A stretch of 64,000 nucleotides of DNA from Acidimicrobiales bacterium (GCA_035536185.1 DATLOM010000021.1:41731-105730); one strand, 5' to 3'. Counted from the first letter of the stretch, positions 4,901 through 50,906 are shown. Notes: generated from the sequence alone by a model not told the origin. Translations and numbers: made by a program.

Positions 4901-7269
4901 CGCCGCTCCGCCTCTGGTTCCGCTCCTCGCTTCGGTGGCGACGTCGATCGTTCATCGCGCTGACGATCCTGGTCGGGGTGGCAGGCGGAGTCGTGGTCGG
5001 GAGCGCGGCGGGTGCCCGGAGAACCGACACCGCCTATACGCGGTTCCTGGAGTACGCCGACACGTTCGACACCGTCGTGCAGGCGGTGCCGTTCCCGCTC
5101 GACATCGAGGCGATCCAGAAGCTTCCCGAGGTGGAGGAGGCGGTGAACGGGGCCTACGCGTTCATCAACCCCGCTCCGGGAGAACCCGACCGGGAGCTGT
5201 CGCCCATACTGATGCCCGACCTCCGCACCGTGAAGGGCGACAACTCCAAGATCCTCGAGGGGCGCCGGCCTGATCCGGACAAGGTCGACGAAGCTTCGGT
5301 CTCCACCGTGGCGGCACGGGCCGGCAAGATCAAAGTCGGGTCGACTCTGCGGCTGCAGGCCTGGACTCCCGAGGCCGCTACCGCGCTACTGCAGGGTGAC
5401 CGGAGCCCGCCCGACGGCGTGAAGGTGGCGGTGAAGGTCGTCGGCATCGAGCTGTTCGCCGGCAATATCCTTCCCTCCGAACAGGACGAGGGCACGCTCC
5501 ATCTGACTCCTGCCTTCGCCAAGAAGTACGGCGACCTCATCGGCCAGGTGGACCTCCTTCGCGTAAAGCTGCGGCGGGGGCAGGCGGACATCGCCTCCTT
5601 CAAGGCCGGCGTGGAGCGGATCTCCGACGGCCGGTCGGTCCAGTTCCTGAATCTTGCCGATGACACCGTGCAGGTCCAGCGGGCCATCCACCTTCAAGCA
5701 GTGGCGCTGCAGCTCTTCGCCCTGCTGGCCGGCGTCGCCGCGCTGCTCATCCTCGGCCAGGCCCTGGCCCGCGACACCTTTGTCGACGCCGGCGACCAGC
5801 CGACACTGGCCGCGCTCGGGCTGGCTCCGGGGCAGCGCTGGGCCGGGCTCATGCTGCGCCCGGCGGCCATCGCCCTGGGTGGGTCGATGGTGGCCGTGGC
5901 CGTCGCCTTTTTCGGCTCTCTCCTGACTCCTTTCGGGATCGCGCGGGATGCCGAGCCCGATCCTGGCCTCGCCTTCGACGCCCTCACCATGCTCACCGGC
6001 GGGGCCGCCATGTTCGTGCTCCTCCTGCTAATCGTCTCCCTTCCGGCCTGGCGGGTCGTCCGGGCCGCGGTGCAGTCCGGGTCCCGTAGAACCGAGCGCC
6101 CGTCCCGCCTGGCCGAGGCTCTGGCCAGGAGCGGTGGGAGCCCCAGTGCCGTCACCGGCTTCAGGATGGCCGTCGAGCCCGGCCGCACCGGATCGGTGCC
6201 CACCCGGGCCGCGCTGGCGGGGACCGTCCTGTCACTGATGGCCCTGGTCACCGCCTTCACCTTCGGCAACAGCCTGCAGAACCTCATCGACGAACCCCGG
6301 CTCTACGGCTGGAACTGGGACGCCCTCGTCGGTGACGTCTTCTTCGAGGACCTGGCCGACCAGGTCGTCCCTCCGCTCTCCGAGGCCGAGTCCGTCGCCG
6401 GGTTCTCGACCATCACCCTGACAGAGGCGGACGTTGGCGGCGTCCGGGTGCCGACCTTCGGGTTCGAGAGCAATTCCGGGTCGGTCTTCCCTCCCATCGT
6501 GAGCGGCCGCGCGCCGGAGCAGCCCGACGAGATCGTGCTCGGCGCCAGAACGATGGGCGACGCCGGCAAGAGCATCGGTGACACGGTGACGGTCCGCGTC
6601 GGCGACAACATCGTGAAGATGCGGATCGTGGGGCGCGGGGTGCTGCCGGCACTGAGCGGGGGCGACATCGCCGGCCTCGGCGAAGGGGCGCTCATCACCG
6701 GAGAGGGGCTGGCTCGACTCGTGCCCAGAGCGGTGCGCAACCTCTTCGCCGTCCGGTTCGCCGAAGGAGTCAGCGACGAGCAGAAGGGGGAGGTGCTGGG
6801 CCAGTTCGAGGAGGGGGCCAGCGTGAGCACGGCGTCCCCACCAAAGCGGGTGGCCGACTTCGATCGGGTGGACAACGTGCCTGTCGTGCTCGCCGGCCTC
6901 CTCATCCTCATCGGCGCCGCCACCCTGGTCCACACCCTGGTGACGGCAGTTCGCCGCCGGCGCCGTGACCTGGCCATCCTCAGGACCCTCGGCTTCGTCA
7001 AAGCTCAGGTGAGATGGACTGTCGCCTGGCAGGCGACGACCTTCACCGTCTTCGCCCTCGCCGTGGGCATCCCGCTCGGCGCCGCCGCCGGCCGCTCGGC
7101 GTGGGGCATCTTCGCCAACGAGCTGGGGATCGTGCCCGAGCCCGTGGTCCCGCTCCTCCCTGTGCTGTTGACGATCCCTGTCACCATCATGATCGCCAAC
7201 GCCGTGGCCCTACTTCCTGGCCGGGCCGCCGTCCGCACCCCGCCGGCCGTCGTGCTGCGGACCGAGTAG
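4897..7269 (+). CDS. ABC transporter permease, FtsX/MacB-type, duplicated (about 10 TM)
   Basis: 790 aa. N-terminal TM (FIALTILVGVAGGVVVGSAAGARRTDTAYTRFLE), large extracytoplasmic regions, two FtsX-like helix bundles (e.g. RRDLAILRTLGFVKAQVRWTVAWQ). GTGA overlap with the upstream CNB gene. Confidence 0.9.
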   Translation: MTPLRLWFRSSLRWRRRSFIALTILVGVAGGVVVGSAAGARRTDTAYTRFLEYADTFDTVVQAVPFPLDIEAIQKLPEVEEAVNGAYAFINPAPGEPDRELSPILMPDLRTVKGDNSKILEGRRPDPDKVDEASVSTVAARAGKIKVGSTLRLQAWTPEAATALLQGDRSPPDGVKVAVKVVGIELFAGNILPSEQDEGTLHLTPAFAKKYGDLIGQVDLLRVKLRRGQADIASFKAGVERISDGRSVQFLNLADDTVQVQRAIHLQAVALQLFALLAGVAALLILGQALARDTFVDAGDQPTLAALGLAPGQRWAGLMLRPAAIALGGSMVAVAVAFFGSLLTPFGIARDAEPDPGLAFDALTMLTGGAAMFVLLLLIVSLPAWRVVRAAVQSGSRRTERPSRLAEALARSGGSPSAVTGFRMAVEPGRTGSVPTRAALAGTVLSLMALVTAFTFGNSLQNLIDEPRLYGWNWDALVGDVFFEDLADQVVPPLSEAESVAGFSTITLTEADVGGVRVPTFGFESNSGSVFPPIVSGRAPEQPDEIVLGARTMGDAGKSIGDTVTVRVGDNIVKMRIVGRGVLPALSGGDIAGLGEGALITGEGLARLVPRAVRNLFAVRFAEGVSDEQKGEVLGQFEEGASVSTASPPKRVADFDRVDNVPVVLAGLLILIGAATLVHTLVTAVRRRRRDLAILRTLGFVKAQVRWTVAWQATTFTVFALAVGIPLGAAAGRSAWGIFANELGIVPEPVVPLLPVLLTIPVTIMIANAVALLPGRAAVRTPPAVVLRTE

Positions 7270-7284: not shown

Positions 7285-9684
7285 ATGTTCTTCGTCTGGA
7301 GGGCCAACCGATCACGCAGTCGAGGCGCCCTGCTGGTGGTCGTCGTCCTGCTCGGCCTGGTCGGCGGGGTCGCCATCGCGTCGGTGGCCGGAGCCCGCCG
7401 CACCGCGTCGACCTTCGATGCCTATCAGGGCGACATCCGTTTCAGCCACGTCGCCGTCAACACCTTCATCCCCGACCTGGAGCGGGTCGAGGCCATCGCC
7501 GCCCTGCCCGGCGTGGAGAGCAGCGCCACCTACCTCGGGCTGAGCGCCTTCCCCCTGCTCGACGGCGAGGTCGTGGAGGACTTCCGTTACACGGGCGTGT
7601 TCGGCAGCCTCGACGGCCGTTTCTTCACCCAGGATCGGGCCACCGTCGTCGATGGCCGGCTCCCCCGGCTCGACGCCACCGACGAGATCGCCTTCACTCC
7701 GGTACAGGCCCGCTTCATGAAGGCCGTGGTCGGGGAGACGGTCACCTACCTCTACAGGGACAACGAGACGCAGGAGGAGCTGGCTCGCACGCAATACGAG
7801 GTCGTCGGCATCGTCCGGCTCCCTCCCGTGCTGGTCGACGAGTACGACATCATCGAGGGGGCGATCCTGCCGCCGGCCGCCACCAGGGAGCGGCTCGACG
7901 CCTTCTATTACGCGTGGCAGGGCATCCGTCTCACCGACGGATTGGACGGGATCGGGCCCTTCCTCCGGCAACTCGAAACCGACCCTGTCGTGTCGCAGCT
8001 GCCTGCGGTGGTCCAGCGGAACGACGAGACGCGGGCCAAGGTGCAGCGTGCGGTGCGGCCCCAGGCCATGGCCCTGGGGTTGTTCGGCGTGACCGCGGCC
8101 CTGGCCGCCATCGCCCTCGCGGCCCAGGCTGCGGCCCGGATCGTCAATCGCTGGTCGGCCGACGCCGCCGTCTTCCGGGCGCTGGGCCTGACCCGCCGGC
8201 AGGTCACGGTCGCTGCCGCCGCTGATGCCGCCATTGCCGTGATGGGTGGCCTTGCCGTGGCGTTCGCGGTCGCGGTGGCGCTCTCACCAATTGCCCCGGT
8301 CGGGGCGGTGCGGGCGTTGGCGCCCGACACGGGTGTTCACGTCGATGGGGCTGCGCTCCCGCTGGGTCTGCTCGTGCTCGGGGTGCCGCTCCTCGCGATG
8401 TGCCTGTGGTTCGGCCGGCGTCTCACCGCTACGAACCACCGGCCCCCGCCGCAACGGCCCCCGTCGGTCGTGTCCGCCGCTGCTCGTACGAACATGCCGC
8501 TGCCGGTCTTCGTCGGCATGAGCCTCGCCTCGCCCGCAGGCCGCGGGCGGGACAACGTGCCGGTCCGGGCCACGATGGTCGGCACGACGGTGGCCATGGC
8601 TGCCACCGTGGCCGCCCTCGTGTTCGCCGCCAGCCTCGGCGACGTGGTCTCTCATCCCCGACGCTACGGCTGGAACTGGGACCAGCTGCTCCTCGAGGAA
8701 GCCGGGTACGGCTCGTTCGCTCCGCCGGTGGTGACCAAGTTGATCGAATCCGAGGAGGACGTCACCGGCTGGTCGTTGCTGGCCTTCGACCAGATGAGCG
8801 TCGACGGCGTGACCGTACCCGCTATCGGGCTGGACCGCCGGGCCGGCGCCGTCGAGCCACCTACCGTCTCCGGCCGCCCCCTCGGCGGCCCTGGAGAGAT
8901 CGCTCTGGGGGTGACCACCCTCTCGCGCATCGGCAAGAAGGTGGGCGACAGGGTGAAGGTGGTCGGCAGCGAGCGGGCCGAGGAGCTCGATGTCGTGGGC
9001 GCGGTCACCTTCCCGGCGATCGGAGTGGGCGGCGCCGACCACACGTCGCTCGGGCGGGGGGCGCTCGTCACCTTCGACGCCCTCAGTCGGCTGAAGACAC
9101 CCGGTGTCGAGTGCATGGAAACCCAGGAGGCCACCTGCCCGAGCGCCATCGCCTTCGACGTGGCGCCGGGGGCGGACGGCGACGCAGTGGCCGAACGCAT
9201 CGCCACGGCGGCGTCCGGCGACACGCCAGGCACCACCTACGCGCAACCGCTGACGCGGCCGGCGGACATCCGCAACTACGAGGAGATGAGCACGGTTCCG
9301 GTCGCCCTGGCGTCGCTCCTCGGCGGGGCGGCGATCGTGGCGCTCATCGTGACGACCCTGGCATCGGTGCGGGCGCGGCGGCGCGAGCTGGGGATCCTCA
9401 AGGCACTCGGCGCTACAGGAGGACTGCTCAGGATGTCGGTCGCCGCCCAGGCGGTGACCATCGCCGCCGGCGCCTGCATCGTCGGCGTACCGGTCGGGAT
9501 CGCGGCAGGACGGGTTTCGTGGATCCGGTTCGCCGAGGTCGTCGGGGTGGTCCCCGTTCCTTCCATCCCGCTATCCACGGCGGCGGTGGCCGTTCTCGCC
9601 GTGGCGGGCGGCGCGCTCCTGTCCGTGGTGCCGGCAACGCTGGCCGCTCGCACCACAGCCGCTCACCAGCTGCGATCCGAATGA
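7285..9684 (+). CDS. ABC transporter permease, FtsX/MacB-type, paralogue of the preceding gene
   Basis: 799 aa. Same architecture and N-terminal motif (LLVVVVLLGLVGGVAIASVAGARRTASTFDAYQ). C-terminal FtsX motif RRELGILKALGATGGLLRMSVAAQ. Confidence 0.9.
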   Translation: MFFVWRANRSRSRGALLVVVVLLGLVGGVAIASVAGARRTASTFDAYQGDIRFSHVAVNTFIPDLERVEAIAALPGVESSATYLGLSAFPLLDGEVVEDFRYTGVFGSLDGRFFTQDRATVVDGRLPRLDATDEIAFTPVQARFMKAVVGETVTYLYRDNETQEELARTQYEVVGIVRLPPVLVDEYDIIEGAILPPAATRERLDAFYYAWQGIRLTDGLDGIGPFLRQLETDPVVSQLPAVVQRNDETRAKVQRAVRPQAMALGLFGVTAALAAIALAAQAAARIVNRWSADAAVFRALGLTRRQVTVAAAADAAIAVMGGLAVAFAVAVALSPIAPVGAVRALAPDTGVHVDGAALPLGLLVLGVPLLAMCLWFGRRLTATNHRPPPQRPPSVVSAAARTNMPLPVFVGMSLASPAGRGRDNVPVRATMVGTTVAMAATVAALVFAASLGDVVSHPRRYGWNWDQLLLEEAGYGSFAPPVVTKLIESEEDVTGWSLLAFDQMSVDGVTVPAIGLDRRAGAVEPPTVSGRPLGGPGEIALGVTTLSRIGKKVGDRVKVVGSERAEELDVVGAVTFPAIGVGGADHTSLGRGALVTFDALSRLKTPGVECMETQEATCPSAIAFDVAPGADGDAVAERIATAASGDTPGTTYAQPLTRPADIRNYEEMSTVPVALASLLGGAAIVALIVTTLASVRARRRELGILKALGATGGLLRMSVAAQAVTIAAGACIVGVPVGIAAGRVSWIRFAEVVGVVPVPSIPLSTAAVAVLAVAGGALLSVVPATLAARTTAAHQLRSE

Positions 9685-35050: not shown

Positions 35051-35113
35051 CCGGCGGCCGGGTGGCTACCAGGGGCGTGAAGCCTGTCCTCGATGTCTCG
35101 CGACATCCCAGAG

Positions 35114-35187
35114 TGGAGACGATGGGACTCGAACCCACGACCCCCGCCTTGCAAAGGCGGTGCTCTAGCCAACTGAGCTACGTCCCC
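35114..35187 (-). tRNA. tRNA-Ala (anticodon UGC)
   Basis: The reverse complement GGGGACGTAGCTCAGTTGGCTAGAGCACCGCCTTTGCAAGGCGGGGGTCGTGGGTTCGAGTCCCATCGTCTCCA folds as a cloverleaf. Anticodon stem CCGCC/GGCGG with loop TTTGCAA, G-U at acceptor position 4, T-arm GTGGG-TTCGAGT-CCCAT. Confidence 0.9.
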
Positions 35188-35303
35188 GGGGGATGAAGAA
35201 AAGGTGGCAGAAAACCCCCGTTGACCCGTATTGTAGGCAACCTGCCCAGACGATCCTTGGCGATCAACGACTGGGCCAACCCCGAGGGCGACGACGAGAA
35301 GGC

Positions 35304-35358
35304 GGCGTTCACCGAGACGGTGACCCAGGGCTGGCGTTCATCGAGACGGTGACCTAGG
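35304..35358. repeat. Tandem 26-nt direct repeat, period 29
   Basis: GGCGTTCACCGAGACGGTGACCCAGG (35304-35329) and GGCGTTCATCGAGACGGTGACCTAGG (35333-35358), 24/26 identical. It lies in a stretch that reads like a broken coding remnant (..DWANPEGDDEKAAFTETVTQGW / ..ERIEQKMVEAVNGLRQLENG..). Confidence 0.8.
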
Positions 35359-35872: not shown

Positions 35873-35950
35873 CTCTCCTCGCTCCCTTTCGCCCTGGGCG
35901 CGTGTTGTTCAGGGCCTTAGGCGTACAGGCGCTTGGAGGCGGAGCCTGGC

Positions 35951-37002
35951 ATGAGCCTGCACCGAGCAATCGAAGAAGCAGCGACCGCGCTGCGGATTGA
36001 CCGCGAGATTGATGCGCTACGCACCGCCGCCGAGTGGTCGGAGGGTCGGCTGGCTGAAGCAGAGGCCCACATTAAAGGCTTGATATCGCCGGAGGAGGCG
36101 GAAATCGACGTTTTGGTCTTGGGATCGTACGCTCGCGGGGAAGCATCAACGAAAAGTGACTTCGATTACTTGATTGTCCCGCACGGGCTCCCCCCGGCGG
36201 GCTCGATTCGTTTTACCCGTGACCTACTTCGAGCCGTGGATGAGTTCATTGAGAGACTCGGCAAGCTAGCGGTCGACGACGACGACGACCCGTCTGACCG
36301 GAGGCCGGGCGGCACAGGGTTGTTCGGACAGATCCAATCAGCATCTGACCTTGTGGAGCGGATAGGTCTTGAACAGGACACGAATACGACCCACACGCGT
36401 CGTCACTCGTGCTGCAGGAGAGCCGGTCCATCTTCCGCCCCGACCTGCACGACAATTTGTTGCACAGCGTGCTCGCCCGTTACCTAAGCGACTACCAGCA
36501 CGGGCAGAAGGCAGGACCACCACGGTTCTTAATTAATGACCTGAACAGGTACTGGTACACGGTAGCCGTTGACTACCAGGCCGAGCGTTGGGAACGCTTG
36601 GAGCGCGGTTGGCGGATTCGCTACCTCAAGCTGCTTGTGTCTCGTCGATTGAGTTACGTCGCTGCTGTGATCCCACTTCTCCTGTGCTCCGCGGAGAACC
36701 TGGCCGAGGTTGATCGACTGGTGGAACTATATAAGCAGCCGCCATTAGCACGACTCTCGTCCCTTGTGACCTACAGCGGCTTTCAGGAGCAGGCCGAACT
36801 GGCCACTGTCCTGCGAACAGCGAATGACTTCATTGAGACGCTCTCCCAGCCAGGTAATCGTTCGCTTCTTGAACAAACCGCTGACGAAGTGCCGCTGTTC
36901 GATGAGATGAAGGCACTTACAAAAAAATTAGACAATACTCTGAGAACGATCCTCTTCGGGTCGCTACTTTCTAACGAGTCGAAGCGGTACTTGGTTCTCT
37001 AA
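35951..37002 (+). pseudogene. Nucleotidyltransferase (pol-beta fold, GlnD/DUF294- or SMODS-like), interrupted by a -1 frameshift
   Basis: ORF 35933-36487 carries the NTase signature (VLVLGSYARGEASTKSDFDYLIV). It loses sense after ...IGLEQDTNTTHTRR. ORF 36409-37002, whose frame is open from 36373, continues LVLQESRSIFRPDLHDNLL...FLINDLNRYWYTVAVDYQAERWE... The joined product is about 350 aa. The frame switch lies within 36373-36487, most likely near 36405. Confidence 0.6.
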
Positions 37003-37003
37003 G

Positions 37004-37438
37004 GTGAGCAATCTAGAGTACGCGTGTCGCGAATGCAGCTTCGAGATTTACATCCCTATCGGTGCATTTGAATCGACCGTCGTTGGACTTTATGACGATA
37101 GAAGGTTTCCTGGCCGGTGCATCGTTGTGCTACGAGACCACTACGAGCACCTCGATCAAGTGCCTGAGCGGCTAGCCCTTGAGATGCAACGACTATGCAC
37201 CGCCGTGGGCCGTACCTTACGTTCTGCGGGACTGGCGACGAGAGTGAACTATGCCGTCCTGGGAAACGAGCATCCGCACGTTCATACACATGTCATCCCC
37301 CGAGGCGGACCGAACGACCTAGTGCCCAAGCGCCCACCATGGCAGCACCCACACCCTGTGACGAAGTTGGCTCACGCCGAACGGACCGCCCTGCTGGACC
37401 TACTCAAAAGATCGCTTCACCAATTCGAGGCAGGCTAG
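37004..37438 (+). CDS. HIT (histidine triad) family nucleotide hydrolase/transferase
   Basis: 144 aa. Histidine triad HPHVHTHVIPR. N-terminal CRECSF... pattern and GRCIVVLRDHYEHLDQV. GTG start lies 1 nt after the NTase stop. Confidence 0.85.
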   Translation: MSNLEYACRECSFEIYIPIGAFESTVVGLYDDRRFPGRCIVVLRDHYEHLDQVPERLALEMQRLCTAVGRTLRSAGLATRVNYAVLGNEHPHVHTHVIPRGGPNDLVPKRPPWQHPHPVTKLAHAERTALLDLLKRSLHQFEAG

Positions 37439-37689
37439 GCGGGCTGGCTTGTTCGCTCTAGCTTTATCTCGATCGGGATTGCGAGCTCATCTGCTATGGC
37501 CAGCGCAGTACGCAAGGGCCATCGGTCACGACTGAGTAGTACTTGGACGACGGCTGGAACGGCTCCGAGGCGCTTCGCCAAAGCCTCTGGCTCGTTGAGA
37601 AGCCCGCTCTCCTCGAGTACCGCCATGACAACGCGCTGAACCTCAGCTGACACCGCTCGTTCGATGCCACCCGGGTCATGGCCGGTCAT
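37435..37689 (-). CDS. XRE-like HTH transcriptional regulator
   Basis: 84 aa. LAKRLGAVPAVVQVLLSRDRWPLRTALAIADELAIPIEI resembles an XRE-type HTH. Its stop overlaps the HIT stop (convergent, CTAG at 37435-37438). Confidence 0.55.
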   Translation of the reverse strand: MTGHDPGGIERAVSAEVQRVVMAVLEESGLLNEPEALAKRLGAVPAVVQVLLSRDRWPLRTALAIADELAIPIEIKLERTSQPA

Positions 37690-37892: not shown

Positions 37893-38318
37893 ATGGCTGC
37901 GTCCATGGCCGGTGAGGCCCCTCAAGAATCAACCACTGGTGAGTACGGCTTCACCTCCAGTCAGGTCCGGAGCCTTCTCGACTGCAGCGACGGAACGGCC
38001 CGAAAGCTATGTCCGCCCACTCTCATGAGTCGCTCCGGGGTGCAGCTAGCGCCCCATGAAGTTGTTCGGCGGGTGCGCCAGGATCTCCTTCTCCGTCTCC
38101 GCGCACGAGAACTCGACCCTGCGGATGAGGCGCAACGGCCGGCAGCGCCCGACGGCGACGCAGTCGCAACGCTTCAGGAACGAGTGATGGTGCTCGAGGA
38201 GCGCCTTCGGCTGATCAGTGCCGCACGAGCAGCGGCGCGTGAGGGGACCCGAATGGCGTTAGCTGAGGAGGACGCTTACCTGCAGGGCATGACGCTGGAC
38301 CTGCGGCCTCCCCGCTGA
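37893..38318 (+). CDS. Hypothetical protein (possible N-terminal HTH, C-terminal coiled coil)
   Basis: ATG 37893 chosen inside track ORF 37836-38318. GFTSSQVRSLLDCSDGTARKL is HTH-like, and LQERVMVLEERLRLISAARAAA is heptad-like. No family recognised. Confidence 0.4.
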   Translation: MAASMAGEAPQESTTGEYGFTSSQVRSLLDCSDGTARKLCPPTLMSRSGVQLAPHEVVRRVRQDLLLRLRARELDPADEAQRPAAPDGDAVATLQERVMVLEERLRLISAARAAAREGTRMALAEEDAYLQGMTLDLRPPR

Positions 38319-38459
38319 CACAACTACCCCGAGGAGTGACTGGAATGACGACCGCTGCTCGCCACACAGGATGGCTGTCACACCGTCGGGGGAGTATGGC
38401 CATGGTGTCATTATCGACGTTCGTCGTCTTCGGCGGGCAAGTCAACCCAGGAAGGGCCC

Positions 38460-38915
38460 ATGATCAACACTTCTCCGGTGCACGAAGCGGGCCACGCTCT
38501 TGCCGCGCTGCTCCTGGGCTTGAACGTCACTGAGATGCTGTATAGCAACATCAACAATGCCTCAACCGACGTAGCTAAGGAGGGTGTGGCTATCGCGGAT
38601 CTCGGAGTCGTGGCGCTGGCCGGCCTAGCGGCTGTTGAGATCATCCATGGGGCGGGTGCTGAAGCGATGGAGGACCAGGAGGGTGCCGAGTGCGATCTCC
38701 CGAAGGCAAGGGCATACGCGACCGCGCTCGAGGAGAGCCCCGAGGCACAAGACTGTCTGCTTCACGAGTGGCGAGACAAGGCAACGACGCTGCTCCGGTC
38801 GCCCGGCATGCCGGAAGCCTTGGAGGCGCTCGGCGGCTTGCTCGTGCGCAGAGGGCGTTTGACTGGTGACGACGTCCGGGAAGTCTTCGGCGGCCGCGTT
38901 CCGTCTGTTAAGTGA
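38460..38915 (+). CDS. Stand-alone FtsH-type (M41-like) zinc metallopeptidase domain protein
   Basis: 151 aa. HEAGHALAALLLG matches the FtsH HEAGHA zinc motif. Later segments parallel FtsH (ALAGLAAVEIIHG resembling GGRAAEE, and the C-terminal ALGGLLVRRGRLTGDDVREVF). No AAA+ domain or TM is present. Confidence 0.6.
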   Translation: MINTSPVHEAGHALAALLLGLNVTEMLYSNINNASTDVAKEGVAIADLGVVALAGLAAVEIIHGAGAEAMEDQEGAECDLPKARAYATALEESPEAQDCLLHEWRDKATTLLRSPGMPEALEALGGLLVRRGRLTGDDVREVFGGRVPSVK

Positions 38916-38933
38916 CCAGGCGAGGACATCGCG

Positions 38934-39791
38934 ATGACGTCTCCGAAGGGGTGGGCGAAACAGGCCGGCGCCTCCCGGCGCGTACTGCTAGTACTCGGTT
39001 TGGGGGTAGCGGGACTCTCGCTCCTCTTCCTCCTCGCGGTACTCGTCCTCACCGCTTGGCGGGTCGGGGCTCTGCCGTCGCAGTCGACGACTGAGACCGC
39101 GACCCAGCTCCAAGGAATCATTGCCGCCGTCAACCTCGTCTTGGTAGTGGTCTTGGCCGCAACGACCGTCTACTACGCCATCCAGAACAAGCGCATGGCC
39201 GACGAGATGCGGTCCGCCAGGGAATTCACCGTCCACCCGCGGATCGCTCTCGACCTCCCCTTCCTCGGACCCTTCTACGTGTTGGTTCGGGTGGTCAACG
39301 TCGGTCTTGGCCCAGCGTTCGACGTGCGCCTCCGCTTGGTGTTCGAGGCCACGCCTGCTTCAGGAAGGCCCACTACAGAGCGTGAGTGGAGGACGCCCCT
39401 TCTCGCTCCCGGGCACCACCAAGACTTCGACGTGTCTGGGCCAGGCGGCGTACCCGTCACCTTCACAGATCTCCCTAAAGAGTTCAGTCGGATCCGCCTC
39501 ATCGGAACAATGTCGGACGGCCTCGGGAACTCATCCTCGATCGACGAGACAATGAGTGACCTCGCAGATTGGGTCCAGAGAATCAACTCCGCTGAGGCGC
39601 TTCTCCCGATTGACCACCTGGAGAAGGCCGCTGACTCCCTTGAGGAGATCAAGCGAACAGTCAAGTCGTGGAGCGCCATCAGCGGTGGCCTACGAGTGCG
39701 CACGGACCAAGACCTGGCTCGTGAGATGGAGAACGCTCGCAGGCGGCGCGACGAAATGGTCGAGCAGGACCGTCCCGGCACTGGCCAGTGA
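38934..39791 (+). CDS. Hypothetical 2-TM membrane protein with beta-rich and helical C-terminal regions
   Basis: 285 aa. TM1 VLLVLGLGVAGLSLLFLLAVLVLTAW and TM2 IIAAVNLVLVVVLAATTVYYAI. Then VRVVNVGLGPAFDVRLRLVF (beta-sandwich-like) and a charged helical tail. Confidence 0.55.
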   Translation: MTSPKGWAKQAGASRRVLLVLGLGVAGLSLLFLLAVLVLTAWRVGALPSQSTTETATQLQGIIAAVNLVLVVVLAATTVYYAIQNKRMADEMRSAREFTVHPRIALDLPFLGPFYVLVRVVNVGLGPAFDVRLRLVFEATPASGRPTTEREWRTPLLAPGHHQDFDVSGPGGVPVTFTDLPKEFSRIRLIGTMSDGLGNSSSIDETMSDLADWVQRINSAEALLPIDHLEKAADSLEEIKRTVKSWSAISGGLRVRTDQDLAREMENARRRRDEMVEQDRPGTGQ

Positions 39792-41161
39792 TACCCAGCG
39801 AGTGCGCCGCGTTCCGGATTTCGGCTGATCGCGTTCCAGGCTCTCCGGCCGACCGCTCAATGAGCAGCGAGTTCGCAGTTTTCTTCACCCCCTACGTCCC
39901 CTGGGGGGGAATCGCGGCTCTTTCGAGCCAACGCCGGTGCAGCGTAACGCCCGAGGCCACCCTCCGATCGCCCGTTGTCTATCCTCGGCCCCTGCCCCAC
40001 CTCCGAGAAGATGCCGACGAGGTCCCCGGAGCGGGTGGAACATGGGGCATCTGGTCGGAGGAGCGTCGGCTGGCCACCGTCACCGTCGAACGACATGACG
40101 GGGGAGGCCCCCCGCTACTCGGTGTGCGAATCGTCCAGCCCCTCCAGTGCAGCAGCGAAGACGCCAGGCAGATCGTGGCCGGCGTAATCAGCCATGCCCG
40201 GGAGCTGCAGGTCCGTCATGTCGATCTCGACACCATCGACCCGCTCGTGCGCCACGAAGCCCGTCTGGCCGGTTTCGACGGCCCTCTCCGCCAGCCGCTG
40301 CGTGGGAACCTCGAGATCCTCCTGGGGCCGTCCCCGGGCGGGCCGGCGACGACCGAGCCCGAGGCGCTGGCCCGGGAGGTGGGGCGGCTTGCCGGCGTGC
40401 AGGTGACCGTGCGGCCGGCTGGGGGTTGGCTGGCCAAGCTGGCGCGGGGTGCCGTGGCCGGGTTCGGTGACATGGTGAACCTGGTCGCCCAGGGCGGTGG
40501 CGGCGGCGGGGACTTCACCCTCGCCGTTCCCCACCGGGTCGATGTCCTGCCCGAGAGCCTGGCTCTGGCCGTGGACACCCTTCTCGGGATCCGTCGCCGC
40601 TTCGGCCGCGCCATCGACCACCTGCGGCTGGTGTCGTTCGACCACGCCAGCCACGGGCTGAAGGTGGGTAGCTACGCCGGCCAGGCCCAGACCAACGTCG
40701 GCATCATCCACCTCAACGCCTCCTACGCGCGGGCGGCAGAGCTCGAGGAGCAGCGCCGGCCCCACCCGGTACTCGGCCCCGAATACCGCTTCTCAGGATC
40801 GACGATCCCGCCCTACAGCACCCTCGAACGCACCGCCGCCCACGAGGCATGGCACCAGATCGAGGGCGCCTTCGAAGCCCGTGTCTACAAGCGCAGCATC
40901 GAGATGCGCCGGCGCCTCGGGGCCCACTTCGGGGTGGAGACCCTGGAACATGCGATCCTCGGCCGCAAGCCCGACGCACCACCGGCGTGGAAGGCGGCCC
41001 AGGCGCGACTCGTGCAGGAGGTTTCGAACTACGGGGGCACCCTGCCGGGTGAGGCGACGGCGGAGATGTTCAAGGACTGGTGGTGTCCCATCGTGCCGGC
41101 ATCGCCGGCGGTGCGGCTGTTCGGGCAGCTGGTGGAGGAGTACTTCCCGCCCCCGGATTGA
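39788..41161 (+). CDS. Hypothetical protein with HEXXH motif (HEAWH) and a possible GNAT-like N-terminal region
   Basis: 457 aa. GTG 39788 overlaps the upstream TGA (GTGA), supporting coupling, but ATG 39860 is an alternative start. AAHEAWHQIE lies near the C-terminus. N-terminal region QIVAGVISHARELQVRHVDLDTIDPLVRHEARLAGF is GNAT-tail-like. G+C rises back to the genome level within this gene. Confidence 0.5.
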   Translation: MIPSECAAFRISADRVPGSPADRSMSSEFAVFFTPYVPWGGIAALSSQRRCSVTPEATLRSPVVYPRPLPHLREDADEVPGAGGTWGIWSEERRLATVTVERHDGGGPPLLGVRIVQPLQCSSEDARQIVAGVISHARELQVRHVDLDTIDPLVRHEARLAGFDGPLRQPLRGNLEILLGPSPGGPATTEPEALAREVGRLAGVQVTVRPAGGWLAKLARGAVAGFGDMVNLVAQGGGGGGDFTLAVPHRVDVLPESLALAVDTLLGIRRRFGRAIDHLRLVSFDHASHGLKVGSYAGQAQTNVGIIHLNASYARAAELEEQRRPHPVLGPEYRFSGSTIPPYSTLERTAAHEAWHQIEGAFEARVYKRSIEMRRRLGAHFGVETLEHAILGRKPDAPPAWKAAQARLVQEVSNYGGTLPGEATAEMFKDWWCPIVPASPAVRLFGQLVEEYFPPPD

Positions 41162-41358: not shown

Positions 41359-42366
41359 CTAGGCCGAGCCCGCTCCCAACGACTCGGGGCGCCCGAAGGC
41401 GGCGGCCCGGACGCCGCGCAGCGCCAGCTCCTGAAGGAAGGGCAAGGGGTCCTCGACCATCTCGGCCAGACCGCTGGCGCCTGACCGGGCGAGGAGGCCC
41501 CGCATGGCCCAGTCGGCAGCCACGCCGGCGACCGTCCCGGCGGCCACCGCCGGGCGGTCGAGGGCGCCGAGCACCCGCACATCGGTCGCCTGGCCCCGCC
41601 GCCCCCGCACCTCGACCCGTAGGGCGCCAAGGGTGCCCTCCGGGTGAGGCCGGCGCATCATGGGCAGGCGCGCCGTCAACCGGTCACGGCGGGATGCGGC
41701 CACCCGGGCAGTGACCCTCGTCACACCTGGGAAGGCGGGCACGAGCACTAGGGGGTCGGGCGCCGCCGCGTGGTAGCAGTCGCGGGAACCGATGGGGTCG
41801 GGGAACCAGGCCAGCTCCCGGCCGGAGCCGCCCCGTCTCGTGGTCCACACCCCGTCCCGCCACTCCGGGCCGTCGGCCCCCCGGGCGGCGTGGTGGTGCT
41901 CCGCACAGGCAGGGCCGCCCGTGCCCGACTTGGCCACGTGCACCTCCTCCACACGATCGAAGCCCGCGGCCGCGTGCTTGGCCAGCAGGCAACCCAAACC
42001 GGGCGCGAAGGCCGCTCCGACGACGACGCTGCGATCCCGGCGGCGGGCCTCCTCGTCGAGCGCGAGCAGGCCCCGCACCTCGGCGAGGTCGTCGGCGATC
42101 GATACGACGTGGGCACCGGCGGCCAGCGCCGCCGCCGCCATGGGCGCGTGCCCGCTCGGCAGAGCGAGCACCACCACGGCGGCAGCGTCGAGGGCATCCG
42201 AGCCCCACGACCCGACGGCCGCCGGCGGGCCCAGCGACGCGGCCACGGCGTCGGACCGCGCTCGGTCGGTGTCGATCACCACCAGCTCCGTAGACGCTCC
42301 CGGCGTAAGTACCTGGCGCGCCGCCCGGGCGCCCACCGCCCCCAGCCCGGCTACTACGACCTTCAC
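41359..42366 (-). CDS. Saccharopine dehydrogenase-like NAD(P)-binding protein
   Basis: 335 aa. N-terminal Rossmann motif MKVVVAGLGAVGARAA. The overall pattern resembles the Sacchrp_dh family. Function unknown. Confidence 0.6.
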   Translation of the reverse strand: MKVVVAGLGAVGARAARQVLTPGASTELVVIDTDRARSDAVAASLGPPAAVGSWGSDALDAAAVVVLALPSGHAPMAAAALAAGAHVVSIADDLAEVRGLLALDEEARRRDRSVVVGAAFAPGLGCLLAKHAAAGFDRVEEVHVAKSGTGGPACAEHHHAARGADGPEWRDGVWTTRRGGSGRELAWFPDPIGSRDCYHAAAPDPLVLVPAFPGVTRVTARVAASRRDRLTARLPMMRRPHPEGTLGALRVEVRGRRGQATDVRVLGALDRPAVAAGTVAGVAADWAMRGLLARSGASGLAEMVEDPLPFLQELALRGVRAAAFGRPESLGAGSA

Positions 42367-47144: not shown

Positions 47145-48173
47145 CTACTGAAGCAGACGCTCGGTCGCTTCTTGGATCGCAGCGTAAAGCTCGCCGACTC
47201 CTCCGGTCTCCTCGTAATCGGCAGCGGCCTCGGCGAGAACATACACTCTTTGGGCGGACTCAGCGAGTGCCTCACGGCCGATATCGTCCTGGCTTGCTGC
47301 CAACGTTGTTCGCAGGGCCAAGGCGATCGTCTCGGATGCCGCTACGGCGAGTTCGGACTCGGGTGTGACCTGTAGTAGTTCGGTCAATGCGCTCGCGAGT
47401 TCCGCAAGAGCGGCCATCCGTTGCTGCTGAGCGCCGAGCCGCGTCTGCTCCGCGAACCATCCGATGAAATCTTCGAAGGCGAGCCGTTGCGATTCATCGG
47501 GCCGCGGAAGCGTGATTGAGTGCTCATCGCCTGCGCCGGGCGACCAGACAGCTTCGCCAGAGAAGTGGAGCTGGTTCTCACCGAGAAGGTGAGCGGCCCA
47601 CCACTTCGCATTGGAGTCGCCATGGATACCGTGGAGCGCCTGCAGCTGCTCCTTCTTCTGGGTCTTCTTCGGTTCGGACCACCGCCACCAAAATTGCTCA
47701 GGGTCGAATAGCAGGTCAGCTGGGTCACCAACCAGCAGCCGTTCGAAGTAGACGATGTCATGAGCGCGAACAACGACCCGTGCGTAACCGATCTCGTCGA
47801 GCCGATAGAGGCGCATGCTCTCGTGCACGTGCTCGTTGCAGAAGTTGATAACCGCACGTCCGAGCGCTTGTACTCCCTCGTCCGACTCGTGCGACGCTTG
47901 GATGAGCGACGCGGCGTTCGGGATCTTTGCTCGTTTCCATGTGACGGGCGTGTCCTGCTTCGTGGACTTGACCTGCCAACCGTAACCACCTTCCTGCGCG
48001 ACGACGTCGATGAAGTCGTATGTGTTCAGAACCTCGCCCTCCCGGACGCGAGCGAGAACGGTCTCGGCGTACGCGCCGGGGATGCTCGCGGCAGCGAAGG
48101 GTAGGCGGAAGTAGTTCTGCAGAAGCTCGCCGATGCGCTCAAGCTGGTCGCTCGTGGAGTAGACACGACTCAC
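47145..48173 (-). CDS. Putative type II restriction endonuclease (PD-(D/E)xK-like)
   Basis: 342 aa. Called from position immediately downstream of, and overlapping, a C-protein gene and next to an m5C MTase and vsr. Candidate nuclease core YDFIDVVAQEGGYGWQVKS. No family recognised; C-terminal third is Ala-rich and helical. Confidence 0.6.
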   Translation of the reverse strand: MSRVYSTSDQLERIGELLQNYFRLPFAAASIPGAYAETVLARVREGEVLNTYDFIDVVAQEGGYGWQVKSTKQDTPVTWKRAKIPNAASLIQASHESDEGVQALGRAVINFCNEHVHESMRLYRLDEIGYARVVVRAHDIVYFERLLVGDPADLLFDPEQFWWRWSEPKKTQKKEQLQALHGIHGDSNAKWWAAHLLGENQLHFSGEAVWSPGAGDEHSITLPRPDESQRLAFEDFIGWFAEQTRLGAQQQRMAALAELASALTELLQVTPESELAVAASETIALALRTTLAASQDDIGREALAESAQRVYVLAEAAADYEETGGVGELYAAIQEATERLLQ

Positions 48174-48403
48174 AGTCCCGCCTCGGCGAGGAGTTCGCTC
48201 GCACTACATGAGAGCCCGAGCGCGAGGTGGGCGAGTGTGGTGACGGTCGGATTGCGGATCCCGCGCTCGACCGCTCCAATGTACGTCCGGTGGAGTCCGC
48301 ACCTCTCGGCGAGTTGCTCCTGGCTGAGACCGCTGGAATGCCTCCGGGACGCGATAATCCCACCAACCGCCGTGAGTACCGCCTGCCTGTCGACGCTCGC
48401 CAC
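48170..48403 (-). CDS. R-M controller (C) protein, XRE-family HTH
   Basis: 77 aa. GLSQEQLAERCGLHRTYIGAVERGIRNPTVTTLAHLALGL is a canonical C-protein/XRE HTH. Its stop overlaps the downstream REase start. A C-box-like operator lies 13 nt upstream. Confidence 0.85.
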   Translation of the reverse strand: MASVDRQAVLTAVGGIIASRRHSSGLSQEQLAERCGLHRTYIGAVERGIRNPTVTTLAHLALGLSCSASELLAEAGL

Positions 48404-48416
48404 TTCGCCAGCCCAA

Positions 48417-48448
48417 CAGACTGCAGTCTATGAGTCTACAGTCTATGC
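48417..48448 (-). promoter_or_regulatory. C-box-like operator
   Basis: The minus strand reads CATAGACTGTAGACTCATAGACTGCAGTCTGT. That is three TAGACT half-sites plus one inverted AGTCT, including the 12-bp palindrome AGACTGCAGTCT. The GACT/AGTC half-sites resemble known C-box operators. Confidence 0.6.
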
Positions 48449-48465
48449 GTAACAAGCACCTGCCC

Positions 48466-49593
48466 CTACTTGACGAGTCGGGCCCTGACGGAGCCAGCGA
48501 TTGCAGCGGCCAGCAGGGCAGGCACCGCGTTGCCAACCTGGCGGCAACGGGCCGTCTTCCCTCCGATGAACCGAACGTTGTCGTCAAACGATTGCAGGCG
48601 CGCGGCCTCCCGAACAGTGATCGTTCGGGCGTCGTACGGGTGGTAGAACATGCCGCTGCCCGGGTGGTACATCCAGGTCGTGATCGTGAGAGCGGGGATG
48701 TCCCACGCCATCCGGCGATAAGCGCTTCCGTAGCCGCTCTTCGGCGCCAGGTGTGGCGGCAGTTTCTCAGCCCCGTCTCCTTCGCCGAGGTACGTGAGGC
48801 GCTCCCGCTGCACCTCGCTCATCCGCCAAGCGTGGTGTTCCGTGAGCTCGGAGACGCCGACCCGGCGCTCCTTCTGGTACGTGGTCGTCGGCTCTCGCCG
48901 GTACGACGTCCAAGTTTCGCCTTCGCCAAGTCCGGCGAGGTCACCGATGGCATCTCGGATCGTACGGTAGGGCTCGAGCGGGAAGAGACCGTCGTCCATG
49001 CTCTCGCCGTGAGACTTCGCAGGCAGGGCGATCGGCCCCGCCCGCGCGGCCAGGATGATCGCCCGACGCCGGCGCTGAGGTACTCCGTAGTCAGCAGCGT
49101 TCAAGACCCCGGCGGACATCGAGTAGCCCAAGTCGCCCAGGCGGCTCTCGATCTCGGTGGCGAAGCGGCCTTGCTCCTTGATCAGGAGTTCCGGGACGTT
49201 CTCGATGACGATGGCTCGCGGCCGAAGCTCCTCGACGAATCGCAAGTACTCCTTGAACAGGTAGTTCCGCGGGTCGTCGACAAACGCGCCGGCTACGTGG
49301 CGTCGAGCGCGATTCTTAGAGAACCCCTGGCAAGGAGGCCCCCCGACAAGGACGTCGAGTTCCCCCTTCCGGAGCCCGAGATCATCCAGCACTCGCTCAC
49401 TCGGCAAGTCTTCGATCGGGCCGGACCATGTCAACGCGTCCTGGTGGTTGAGCTTGAATGCCTCCAACGCCGCGTCATCGAAGTCGTTCCCACCGACGAC
49501 AATGAAGCCGGCGGCCTCGAAGCCAGTGGAGAGACCTCCGCAGCCGCAGAAGAGGTCGAGGACCTTCAGACCCATGCTCTCGATGTTACTCAT
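48466..49593 (-). CDS. dcm: DNA (cytosine-5)-methyltransferase
   Basis: 375 aa. Motif I LDLFCGCGGLSTGF, motif IV GGPPCQGFS, motif VI ENV, motif VIII QRRRR, motif X GNAVP. Confidence 0.95.
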   Translation of the reverse strand: MSNIESMGLKVLDLFCGCGGLSTGFEAAGFIVVGGNDFDDAALEAFKLNHQDALTWSGPIEDLPSERVLDDLGLRKGELDVLVGGPPCQGFSKNRARRHVAGAFVDDPRNYLFKEYLRFVEELRPRAIVIENVPELLIKEQGRFATEIESRLGDLGYSMSAGVLNAADYGVPQRRRRAIILAARAGPIALPAKSHGESMDDGLFPLEPYRTIRDAIGDLAGLGEGETWTSYRREPTTTYQKERRVGVSELTEHHAWRMSEVQRERLTYLGEGDGAEKLPPHLAPKSGYGSAYRRMAWDIPALTITTWMYHPGSGMFYHPYDARTITVREAARLQSFDDNVRFIGGKTARCRQVGNAVPALLAAAIAGSVRARLVK

Positions 49594-49610
49594 AGTCGCT
49601 CTCCAGGTTC

Positions 49611-50072
49611 GTGGACCTACGCCCGCTCTGCGCGAGGTGTCAGGGCGCCGTGAGGACTAGGCGCCGATCAGCGGCCGCTATCTCGGCGGCGATGCGTGGG
49701 AGCCGACGTCGTGACACCCGGCCCGAGTTGGCATTGCGGCAAGAGCTCCATCGTCGTGGCCTGCGGTACGGGGTGGACCGCCCCGTTGTCGCCGGAGCTG
49801 TACGCGTGCGCCCGGATGTCGTGTTCCCGCGTGTGCGCGTCGCTGTGTTTGTGGACGGGTGCTGGTGGCACCGGTGTCCGGTCCACGGTCGAGAGCCCGA
49901 ACGAAACCTTGATTACTGGACCCCGAAGTTTGAGAGGAACATCCTTCGGGACCGTCGAGTCGACGCAGCGCTTGAGGCTGACGGGTGGACCGTCATCCGG
50001 ATCTGGGAACACGAGTCGGCCGGTGACGGCGCCGATCTCGTCGAAACTGTCATCCATCGAGAAGCGCGGTAG
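49611..50072 (+). CDS. vsr: Very-short-patch repair endonuclease
   Basis: 153 aa. RRRDTRPELALRQELHRRGLRY, PDVVFPRVRVAVFVDGCWWHRCP, NILRDRRVDAALEADGWTVIRIWEHE. Divergent from the m5C MTase with a 17-nt gap. Confidence 0.92.
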   Translation: MDLRPLCARCQGAVRTRRRSAAAISAAMRGSRRRDTRPELALRQELHRRGLRYGVDRPVVAGAVRVRPDVVFPRVRVAVFVDGCWWHRCPVHGREPERNLDYWTPKFERNILRDRRVDAALEADGWTVIRIWEHESAGDGADLVETVIHREAR

Positions 50073-50075
50073 ACG

Positions 50076-50372
50076 GTGGACACACGCTTCTGCGACCCAA
50101 TCCGGAGGCGCGATGTGCTGGAGGTTGTGTATCGCGGTACGACGCGAGTCGTCGAGCCCCATGGCCATGGCATCACCAGATCCGGGATGGAGGTCGTTCT
50201 CGTTTACCAGCGAGCCGGCGCGAGCAAGTCGGGGCGGGCGGAGGGTTGGAAGACGCTGCACGCCTCGGACATCGAGGCGGTGCGATTGCTCGGCACGAGG
50301 TTCCTGCGCGTGCGGGAAGATGCCGACCCGGACGCGCGAGAACTCGGAACGGTGCACTGCTTCGCCGGCTAG
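50076..50372 (+). CDS. Small WYL-like (SH3 beta-barrel) domain protein
   Basis: 98 aa. GTG lies 3 nt after the vsr stop. Pattern VVYRGTTRVVEPHGHGITRSGMEVVLVYQRAGASKSGRAEGWKTLHASDIEAVRLLGTRF matches a small family I recall being annotated as WYL-domain-containing. High third-position G+C. Preferred over the antisense ORF 49668-50390, which overlaps vsr. Confidence 0.5.
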   Translation: MDTRFCDPIRRRDVLEVVYRGTTRVVEPHGHGITRSGMEVVLVYQRAGASKSGRAEGWKTLHASDIEAVRLLGTRFLRVREDADPDARELGTVHCFAG

Positions 50373-50832
50373 CAACGCTGGATCGGACATGGCTCGATCG
50401 TAAGCTTGGGGTGTGACCCTCTGGGCGAGCGGTCGTTTGGGGCTACTGGAAGGGGAGCTGGCCAGGGCCTCTACAGCTCCAACCCTGTTCGCTTGACATC
50501 CGGATCCTGCTTTGCGAGACAGGGGTCGTCGTCAGGGGCCGAGCTGCCTCCGTGGCGGCGGTACGGTCGGCGACTACCGGGTGTTGTACAGGCCGGTGGA
50601 GCAAGGCCTGTGGGTGGAACGCATCGTTGATCGGCGTGACCTCGACCGAGCCGCAGCAACCCCGTGAGGTCCTGCGCCCGTGTGACGGGCGGCCTCGCCA
50701 GTCTCTCTGGTCGTCCGCCGTGCCCGCTACGTACCCGTAGCGACGGAAAATCCGGGTAAATCTCAGTTTCTGGCGGACACCGCCAGGACTGTCCTCACGC
50801 CACTTGACCTGCGGTTATGCCGTTTCCGGGAG

Positions 50833-50906
50833 TGGGGCTAGATGGAGTCGAACCATCGACCTCAGCATTATCAGTGCTGCGCTCTAACCAGCTGAGCTAT
50901 AGCCCC
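50833..50906 (-). tRNA. tRNA-Ile (anticodon GAU)
   Basis: The reverse complement GGGGCTATAGCTCAGCTGGTTAGAGCGCAGCACTGATAATGCTGAGGTCGATGGTTCGACTCCATCTAGCCCCA folds as a cloverleaf. Anticodon stem CAGCA/TGCTG with loop CTGATAA. Confidence 0.9.

Follow-up and report, generated by a model that had tools for sequence, protein, structure and literature searches.

The question raised by positions 37,893-41,161 of a 64,000-nt stretch of DNA from an Acidimicrobiales bacterium (GCA_035536185.1 DATLOM010000021.1:41731-105730; this whole stretch is hereafter the window) is whether four consecutive, co-directional open reading frames (ORFs), denoted here genes 1 to 4, constitute a single functional system. 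An earlier note, made from the sequence of the window alone, described them as an operon in which two putative zinc proteases, encoded by genes 2 and 4, flank a small membrane protein, the product of gene 3, and likened the setting to that of abortive-infection or effector-type systems. All four ORFs are borne out in the sequence together with the motifs and junctions attributed to them, namely a 141-nt gap between genes 1 and 2, an 18-nt gap between genes 2 and 3, and a GTGA overlap of genes 3 and 4 at 39788-39791 (Table 1). The four-gene operon nevertheless fails: the interval is an island-edge junction, at which genes 1-3, cargo of a 4.6-kb horizontally acquired low-G+C islet that reaches from a tRNA-Ala gene to ~39.8 kb, adjoin gene 4, which belongs to the resident chromosome and groups with its downstream oxidoreductase-like neighbour. 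Within the islet, gene 2 encodes a stand-alone peptidase domain of the M41 (FtsH) type. The reading favoured here, in which as a whole we place moderate confidence, combines the islet-edge junction with a view of gene 2 as a self-contained, ATP-independent, islet-borne zinc peptidase that is probably co-transcribed with gene 3. Taken alone, the anatomical conclusions are very likely to be correct; the specific functional reading, taken alone, is tentative and has clearly less than an even chance.

The edge of a horizontally acquired islet

The junction emerges from comparison with a close relative, a Logan contig (SRR28401766; denoted L001). In a blastn alignment the two sequences share 91.6% DNA identity over 2.5 kb, starting at window position 39808, 17 nt past the gene 3 stop codon. 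L001 carries gene 4 and the downstream oxidoreductase-like gene (93% protein identity by tblastn), and it lacks genes 1-3. Upstream of gene 4 it contains a different insert of ~6.5 kb that consists of unrelated ORFs, including those for 593-aa and 451-aa proteins without a Pfam match, and is bracketed by an imperfect direct repeat of 35-44 nt (1300-1342 and 7835-7878), of which the window holds one copy. The site just upstream of gene 4 looks like a place of cargo exchange, and this arrangement suggests a recombination hotspot.

Base composition changes at the same place. The G+C content of the window is ~0.70 overall, 0.57-0.65 from the tRNA-Ala gene to ~39.8 kb and 0.71-0.75 beyond; that of genes 1-3 is 0.63-0.66, compared with ~0.70 for the genome. 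At third codon positions (GC3), core genes have values of 0.85-0.94, whereas a nucleotidyltransferase (NTase) gene and a HIT-domain gene upstream of gene 1 have 0.61-0.66, gene 1 has 0.66, gene 2 has 0.72, gene 3 has 0.76, and the conserved body of gene 4 has 0.85; the G+C content of gene 1 by codon position (0.77/0.54/0.66) is likewise islet-like. The placement of genes 1-3 in a low-G+C, horizontally acquired islet beside a candidate defence NTase is thus supported by G+C, GC3 and the match of the NTase to the PADLOC candidate PDC-M70A. The assignment of gene 4 to the same island is contradicted by its GC3 of 0.85 versus 0.72-0.76 in genes 2 and 3.

Gene 4 is considered resident because identity to L001 begins at 39808, L001 carries different cargo, genes 1-3 are absent from all three contigs with gene 4 homologues (L001, 8001-9188; L002, 8001-9062; L003, 6134-7309), and its GC3 is core-like. 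The downstream 335-aa gene is shared in L001 alone among these loci; in L002 the homologue adjoins an acyl-CoA dehydrogenase gene and in L003 a VanY gene. The block is therefore not conserved as a unit: gene 4 occurs without genes 1-3, and the relatives of gene 2 share no neighbour with one another. Such lack of co-conservation had been named beforehand in the earlier note as one outcome that would speak against the operon. The comparison is mainly of corrective value: at the edge of an island, short intergenic gaps and an overlap of 4 nt had given the appearance of an operon. The 'two proteases' do not belong to one system either, being members of unrelated families with different evolutionary histories, of which the second is resident; a relationship between genes 2 and 4 was rejected at an hhalign probability of 0.2% between the two HExxH families. 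No family of PADLOC-DB v2 is matched by genes 1-4 at E <= 1. There is no evidence that genes 1-4 form a conserved defence system; an abortive-infection role is possible.

The family of gene 4 (n = 16 homologues of 256-495 aa, mostly 348-395 aa, covering 56-85% of the 457-aa ORF) is confined to Acidimicrobiales-type metagenome contigs. The HEAWH motif with which the protein was said to end is present at residues 352-356, ~100 residues before the C-terminus rather than at it. AHExWH and EATAEMFxxWWC are invariant in the family, and AHExWH and EATAE do not vary across 14 homologues with identities as low as 33%, so conserved a pair of motifs that a metallopeptidase role appears plausible. The EATAEMF motif recalls what we take to be the pattern of MtfA or lethal-factor-type gluzincins; as an identification this was set aside, since profile searches with the C-terminal domain were empty, and it serves as a lead only. 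Neither the whole protein nor its C-terminal domain alone gave a Pfam or PDB profile match.

Translation of gene 4 from the GTGA overlap (GTG 39788) is unsupported by codon G+C, Shine-Dalgarno sequences, indels relative to L001 or homologue lengths. The first 62 codons of the 457-aa ORF have a non-coding-like G+C pattern by codon position (0.60/0.65/0.74, compared with 0.77/0.50/0.85 in the remainder), and three 1-nt indels between the window and L001, located between 39860 and 39990, are incompatible with a kept reading frame; one 1-nt indel in the window's copy abolishes the TTG start of L001. GTG 39788, ATG 39860 and GTG 40124 are the only in-frame starts, none with a convincing Shine-Dalgarno sequence, and to judge by these sequence features gene 4 probably begins at ATG 39860 or GTG 40124, not at GTG 39788. 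A collection of 5.8 billion proteins lacks the gene 4 product of the window but contains those of genes 2 and 3, which were submitted as hypothetical proteins from a metagenome-assembled genome of Acidimicrobiales; this absence would fit if the depositors had annotated gene 4 with another start or as a pseudogene.

A stand-alone M41 domain

The 151-aa product of gene 2 had been described as the M41 protease domain of FtsH without the AAA+ or membrane parts, and motif, third ligand and fold all agree with this description. The HEAGH motif occupies residues 8-12 (His8, Glu9 and His12), within HEAGHALAALLLG at residues 8-20, and Glu60 and Asp79 are present as well. Run exhaustively against 1.84 billion representatives, phmmer returned 19 matches at E <= 1e-3, mostly of 103-194 aa with outliers of 224 and 352 aa; the family is very rare. 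In the alignment of 18 relatives, HE(A/S)GH lies close to the N-terminus and is retained wherever the relative is full-length; the alignment further shows a LAGxAAxE helix and a near-invariant aspartate that corresponds to Asp79 and is conserved in at least 90% of them. In a search of the PDB, the profile of these 18 relatives matched crystal and cryo-EM structures of FtsH with E = 5.7e-15, the aligned region extending across the two halves of the protease domain; single-sequence phmmer searches with genes 1-4 gave nothing meaningful. The profile alignment places HEAGH on HEAGHA of FtsH, aligns the LAGxAAxE helix, and pairs Asp79 with the aspartate of 'NDIERAT', which we take, from FtsH structures, to be the third zinc ligand; the third ligand that the HEAGH protein was expected to need is thus present, ~70 residues past the motif. 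The Pfam model of the family (Peptidase_M41, PF01434) matches 11 of the 18 relatives, with a best E-value of 3.3e-8, and falls just short of its cut-off in the relative at L013 (29.8 vs 29.9; Table 1). PF06114 (ImmA/IrrE, M78) matches neither gene 2 nor any of the 18, and the PDB profile search yielded FtsH and weak M50 matches.

Structure prediction and Foldseek comparison, a check proposed for all four proteins, point the same way for gene 2. The AlphaFold2 model built from the family alignment (pLDDT 94.2, pTM 0.89) has as its top 46 PDB matches the protease domains of FtsH, FtsHi, YME1 and AFG3L2, all of the FtsH family, with TMq of 0.56-0.77; the next match, a 131-residue chain of PDB 5IQJ, is at TMq 0.36. 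The viral Foldseek library yielded FtsH proteins of giant viruses together with a stand-alone protein of 214 aa, named 'Peptidase M41 domain', from an uncultured Caudovirales phage (UniProt A0A6J5RJ76; TMq 0.74); the phage protein also lacks the AAA+ module. The absence of the remaining FtsH parts is equally clear: gene 2 has no AAA match, HEAGH lies already at residue 8, the upstream gene 1 has no ATPase match either, and there is no N-terminal transmembrane (TM) anchor, the only hydrophobic stretch (44-62) being the core helix that aligns with LGGRAAEE of FtsH.

Gene 2 thus resembles FtsH (MEROPS M41, PF01434) in its overall fold, in carrying HEAGH on its first helix, and in having both the LAGxAAxE helix and an Asp as third ligand, with TMq of up to 0.77 to E. 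coli FtsH cytosolic domains. It differs in its size (~150 residues as against ~200 in the protease domain of FtsH; Pfam models M41 over 191 positions), in lacking the AAA+ ATPase, N-terminal TM and periplasmic region and hence ATP-driven unfolding or membrane extraction, and in being encoded in an islet, whereas FtsH is an essential housekeeping gene. PDB 5IQJ (Vibrio cholerae, 134 aa), which matches the N-terminal HExxH half of the family profile (E = 3e-5; whole-structure TMq 0.36), may be a solved stand-alone relative; the sequence identity of gene 2 to 5IQJ and to stand-alone M41 proteins is 16-21%. Gene 2 represents a well-known peptidase domain in a rare AAA-less form; stand-alone M41 proteins are already present, unannotated, in the databases.

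The M41 domain is understood solely in its role as the chamber for proteolysis within a membrane machine driven by ATP, and a catalytically intact version of 150 residues without the motor raises the questions of what can be cut by such a domain alone and why foreign DNA should carry it. With the metal ligands His8, His12 and Asp79 and the catalytic Glu9 retained, gene 2 would act as a zinc peptidase. Because only accessible segments could be cut without ATP-driven unfolding, it would cleave exposed or unstructured segments of its substrates in an ATP-independent manner and would more likely be a specific endopeptidase than a bulk or processive degrader.

Gene 3 and the possible role of the peptidase

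The description of the gene 3 product as a protein with two TM helices and a beta-rich domain is in line with both hydropathy and model. Hydropathy maxima at residues ~17-41 and 57-84 mark the TM helices, and a single-sequence AlphaFold2 model (pLDDT 60.9) has helices at 7-43 and 52-94, six β-strands in a predicted β-sandwich at 116-206, and helices at 208-278. As positive charges are found on the N-terminal and post-TM2 sides, the remainder of the protein is predicted to be cytoplasmic. Foldseek matches of the model, to KirBac, Kir, arrestin and Ig-like structures, are at a TM score of ~0.25 with a root-mean-square deviation of > 9 Å, a likeness of architecture only; a K+ channel was rejected, the predicted inter-TM loop of 8 residues being judged too short for a pore loop. 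The comparison with SLATT and S-2TMβ effectors that the earlier note had suggested gave no Pfam or PADLOC model at E <= 1, there is no holin match at threshold, and PF23494 (bPH_10) reaches 19.3 bits against a cut-off of 27, over the TM hairpin (13-87) only. Gene 3 has no homologue in the protein, phage or plasmid collections searched. Its start codon, 18 nt past the gene 2 stop, is preceded by the Shine-Dalgarno sequence GGCGAGGA, and AGGAAGGG lies 4-11 nt upstream of the gene 2 ATG; the short spacer, the Shine-Dalgarno sequence and the lack of a terminator-like site on the + strand between the two genes indicate that genes 2 and 3 are probably co-transcribed. Promoter and terminator scans were otherwise uninformative. 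Genes 2 and 3 occur as a pair in this genome alone.

Gene 1 had been described as a helix-turn-helix (HTH) and coiled-coil protein; the HTH is suspected from sequence alone, and one match of coiled-coil type is the only profile match at E <= 1. Gene 1 has no family or PDB match, no PADLOC or PHROGs match, and viral contigs contain no relative of it. When all eight islet ORFs were scanned against Pfam, NCBIfam, PHROGs and PADLOC, genes 1, 3 and 4 were left without a family.

Word-indexed protein searches with genes 2 and 3 found each protein itself only (gene 3 among 5.8 billion proteins), alignments of gene 2 against genome, metagenome and viral contigs gave no relative, and tblastn of gene 2, gene 3 and one gene 2 relative (P0024) against phage and plasmid collections gave no match; a motif-based rescan of contigs added one relative, L013. 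Ten genomic contexts of gene 2 relatives were compared, with neighbours matched by all-against-all BLAST (Table 1). None of the neighbours resembles gene 1 or gene 3, nor do they resemble one another, and integrase, recombinase, transposase, restriction-modification (R-M) or AbiU2 genes are located near the relative in five of the ten. The gene 2 family is thus often, not always, found on mobile or defence-rich DNA, and without a fixed partner. In PADLOC, the 18 relatives give one weak match (PDC-M17A, E = 0.0086), and a literature search for defence or regulatory roles of stand-alone M41 proteins returned no relevant paper. The closest full-length relative (43% identity), at L004 881-2100, overlaps the start of the gene for a 252-aa protein with a C-terminal DUF559 (E = 1e-5), presumably endonuclease-like, and a DUF4352 membrane protein is encoded nearby on the opposite strand.

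Since the relatives lack a conserved partner and often reside in DNA with integrase, transposase, R-M or Abi genes, we favour for gene 2 the role of a self-contained accessory protease, by analogy with ImmA and Lit. ImmA/IrrE (M78) and Lit of prophage e14 are small or single-domain HExxH zinc proteases that are carried on mobile DNA and act independently of ATP on one target, a repressor for ImmA and EF-Tu for Lit. They belong to other peptidase families, and gene 2, with no M78/ImmA or Lit profile match, would be a member of neither. Gene 3, in that case, would encode a membrane protein co-expressed with gene 2, specific to this lineage and perhaps the substrate or the tether of the peptidase. 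Should gene 2 prove to be a specific conflict or regulatory protease, a peptidase family would be added to the short list of those used by prophages and islands.

Several observations weigh against this reading of gene 2 as an accessory protease. Searched alone, gene 2 has no PF01434 match at E <= 1 in Pfam and a motif-level M50B match only. Two relatives (L013 and L014) are found in apparently ordinary chromosome and another (L011) is a pseudogene, so that a role in conflict or on mobile elements does not hold in general. A downstream gene in five of the ten contexts is tightly coupled to the M41 gene (overlap or gap <= 4 nt); these genes are mutually unrelated, and they could keep alive the idea of a protease with a variable partner. 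The model of gene 3 is of low confidence (pLDDT 60.9).

The coupled genes lead directly to the notion of a two-gene module, a toxin-antitoxin or abortive-infection pair in which gene 3 would be a membrane effector gated by gene 2, the protease either restraining gene 3 by cleavage or activating it upon infection with ensuing envelope damage. The 18-nt spacing with a Shine-Dalgarno sequence is compatible with such a pair, as are the presence of a PADLOC candidate NTase in the same islet and the five coupled, unrelated downstream genes, one of them DUF559 nuclease-like (L004), which fit variable effectors. The TM hairpin and cytoplasmic β-rich domain of gene 3 (in the low-confidence model) are shared with known membrane effectors, namely the S-2TMβ/Cap15 effectors of cyclic-oligonucleotide-based antiphage signalling systems (CBASS) and the SLATT proteins. 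Gene 3 differs from these in its extra helical tail of 80 residues and in lacking a CD-NTase/SMODS partner: the NTase in its vicinity, a frameshifted gene, belongs to the NTP_transf_2/PDC-M70A type, and four ORFs lie between it and gene 3 (the HIT gene, an 84-aa ORF on the opposite strand, gene 1 and gene 2). Given in addition that gene 3 has neither a homologue in the collections searched nor a SLATT, S-2TMβ, holin or PADLOC match at threshold, that the genes downstream of the relatives are dissimilar, and that four relatives are solitary, we regard the two-gene module as rather unlikely.

A broader extrapolation, that AAA-less M41 domains are an unrecognised class of mobile-DNA-borne zinc peptidases engaged in phage-host or element-host conflict, seems improbable in either of its forms. 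In one, such domains could supply the protease to two-gene modules whose effectors are interchangeable, a 2-TM protein here and a DUF559 nuclease-like protein elsewhere; in the other, they could mimic the protease ring of FtsH, co-assembling with the essential FtsH of the host or competing against it.

We consider it quite improbable that gene 2 is the regulatory protease of a decayed mobile element, acting like ImmA/IrrE by cleavage of an HTH repressor encoded by the 84-aa ORF or gene 1. The 84-aa ORF, which is divergent from gene 1 and possibly encodes a small CI-like HTH regulator, has CI-repressor and regulator matches below threshold; the P0024 relative follows, at a distance of two genes, the gene for an HTH_3 protein, and its contig also encodes a serine recombinase; integrases occur near the relatives in L007 and L010; and gene 2 is, as we take it, similar in size to ImmA. 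Against these stand the absence of an integrase, recombinase or excision gene from the islet of the window (ORF and Pfam-type scans), the match of the family to M41 rather than M78/ImmA, the sub-threshold HTH evidence in both candidate substrates, and the lack of an adjacent HTH gene in most relatives.

The same low likelihood attaches to the view that the islet is decaying and genes 1-3 are non-functional remnants, genes 1 and 3 being possibly spurious or fast-evolving orphans. Decay is suggested by the frameshift in the neighbouring NTase gene, the orphan status of genes 1 and 3, the absence of a mobility gene, and the one relative that is a pseudogene without HEAGH; yet gene 2 keeps all catalytic residues and a confidently predicted fold, genes 2 and 3 have coding-type G+C periodicity and Shine-Dalgarno sequences, and the gene 3 ORF is long and of coherent architecture. 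Finally, the four-gene defence or effector system itself, although the genes are co-directional with short gaps and a GTGA overlap, HExxH is conserved in both gene 2 and gene 4, and the low-G+C neighbourhood includes an NTase, is very improbable in view of three loci with gene 4 and without genes 1-3, the different cargo in the 91.6%-identical L001, the identity boundary at 39808, the core-like GC3 and unsupported overlap start of gene 4, the hhalign result, and the lack of a PADLOC match.

Surroundings of the interval

Table 1. Features of the window and gene contexts of gene 2 relatives (M41) on other contigs
Sequence	Feature	Position	Strand	Evidence or remarks
Window	tRNA-Ala(TGC)	35113-35187	-	ARAGORN; Rfam RF00005, 70.7 bits; left edge of low-GC islet
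Window	NTase, PADLOC candidate PDC-M70A	35933-37002, in two overlapping frames, 35933-36487 and 36409-37002	+	
Window	HIT-domain protein, 144 aa	37004-37438	+	PF01230 HIT, E = 2.6e-8, 34.8 bits vs cut-off 21.5
Window	84-aa ORF, divergent from gene 1	37435-37689	-	PF07022 Phage_CI_repr, E = 0.08; phrog_1373 'transcriptional regulator', E = 0.095
Window	Gene 1	37893-38318 (ATG start, 141 aa) or from TTG 37836 (160 aa)	+	Orphan protein
Window	Gene 2, 151 aa	38460-38915	+	Stand-alone M41 (FtsH-type) zinc-peptidase domain
Window	Gene 3, 285 aa	38934-39791	+	Orphan 2-TM membrane protein
Window	Right junction of islet and resident chromosome	39792-39810		Start of L001 identity at 39808; GC3 rise from 0.72-0.76 to 0.85
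Window	44-nt repeat sequence, one copy	39808-39853		L001 1300-1342 matches 39808-39851 at 90.9%; three-way alignment
Window	Gene 4, 457-aa ORF	39788-41161; more likely 39860-41161 or from GTG 40124	+	
Window	NAD(P)-binding oxidoreductase-like gene, 335 aa	41359-42366	-	Rossmann-type Pfam matches; GC3 0.89; syntenic with gene 4 in L001
Window	Second lower-GC islet	47145-50906		G+C 0.62-0.65; ends at tRNA-Ile 50832-50906
Window	342-aa protein without family match	47145-48173		Adjoins methylase
Window	C-5 cytosine DNA methylase	48466-49593		PF00145, E = 5e-61; in second islet
L004/L005	Lipoprotein-like gene, M41, overlapping DUF559 nuclease-like gene			
L006	M41, overlapping gene of unknown family			
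L007	Integrase, HSDR_N and MmeI-type methyltransferase, M41			
P0024 contig	HTH_3, 148-aa gene, M41, 72-aa gene, 137-aa gene			Serine recombinase farther on
L008/L009	M41, solitary			Between IS21, Transposase_20 gene and CHAP gene
L010	M41, 114-aa gene, 81-aa gene			AbiU2-type HEPN protein and integrase farther on
L011	Pseudogene-like M41 copy	5776-6357		46% identity over C-terminal two thirds; HEAGH region lost in frame; DUF4326 gene adjoining
L012	M41, 65-aa gene			
L013	M41			Methylomirabilota; between glycosyltransferase/LAB_N genes and FAD-oxidase gene
L014	M41			Downstream of trypsin-like protease gene; ordinary chromosomal context

The NTase module that had been placed next to the interval is indeed there, as the NTase gene and the HIT gene lie directly upstream. 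The first NTase ORF matches positions 15-132 of the PDC-M70A profile (E = 1.4e-12) and the second positions 136-341 (E = 6.2e-30), so that the islet NTase, which also matches PF01909 (NTP_transf_2; E = 2.6e-4), corresponds to component A of PDC-M70 over the full profile when the frames are joined; it lies outside the four-gene interval. The frameshift near 36.4 kb reflects either a pseudogene or an assembly error. The HIT gene begins 2 nt past the NTase stop codon, and the two genes could constitute a separate module for nucleotide signalling or modification.

Just inside the islet by the tRNA-Ala gene, two direct repeats of 26 nt, 92% identical and spaced by 29 nt, are found at 35304-35358, with a third copy (69%) at 39083-39108 within gene 3. 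A direct repeat of 20 nt (85%) links 35178-35197, at the 5' end of the tRNA-Ala gene, with 39892-39911, upstream of gene 4; its interpretation as a tRNA-derived att duplication was rejected as it probably arose by chance, the 5' end of the tRNA being involved and the second copy lying inside the region shared with L001. An Rfam scan detected tRNAs only.

The R-M system that had been placed next to the interval is not adjacent to it. The sole R-M-like gene found is the C-5 cytosine methylase gene, ~7 kb away in a separate islet, which is presumably what the earlier note meant. The ORFs between gene 4 and that second islet have core-like GC3 values (0.85-0.89), the Pfam scan in this region having covered 41359-42366 alone. 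The 342-aa protein encoded beside the methylase is possibly its restriction partner.

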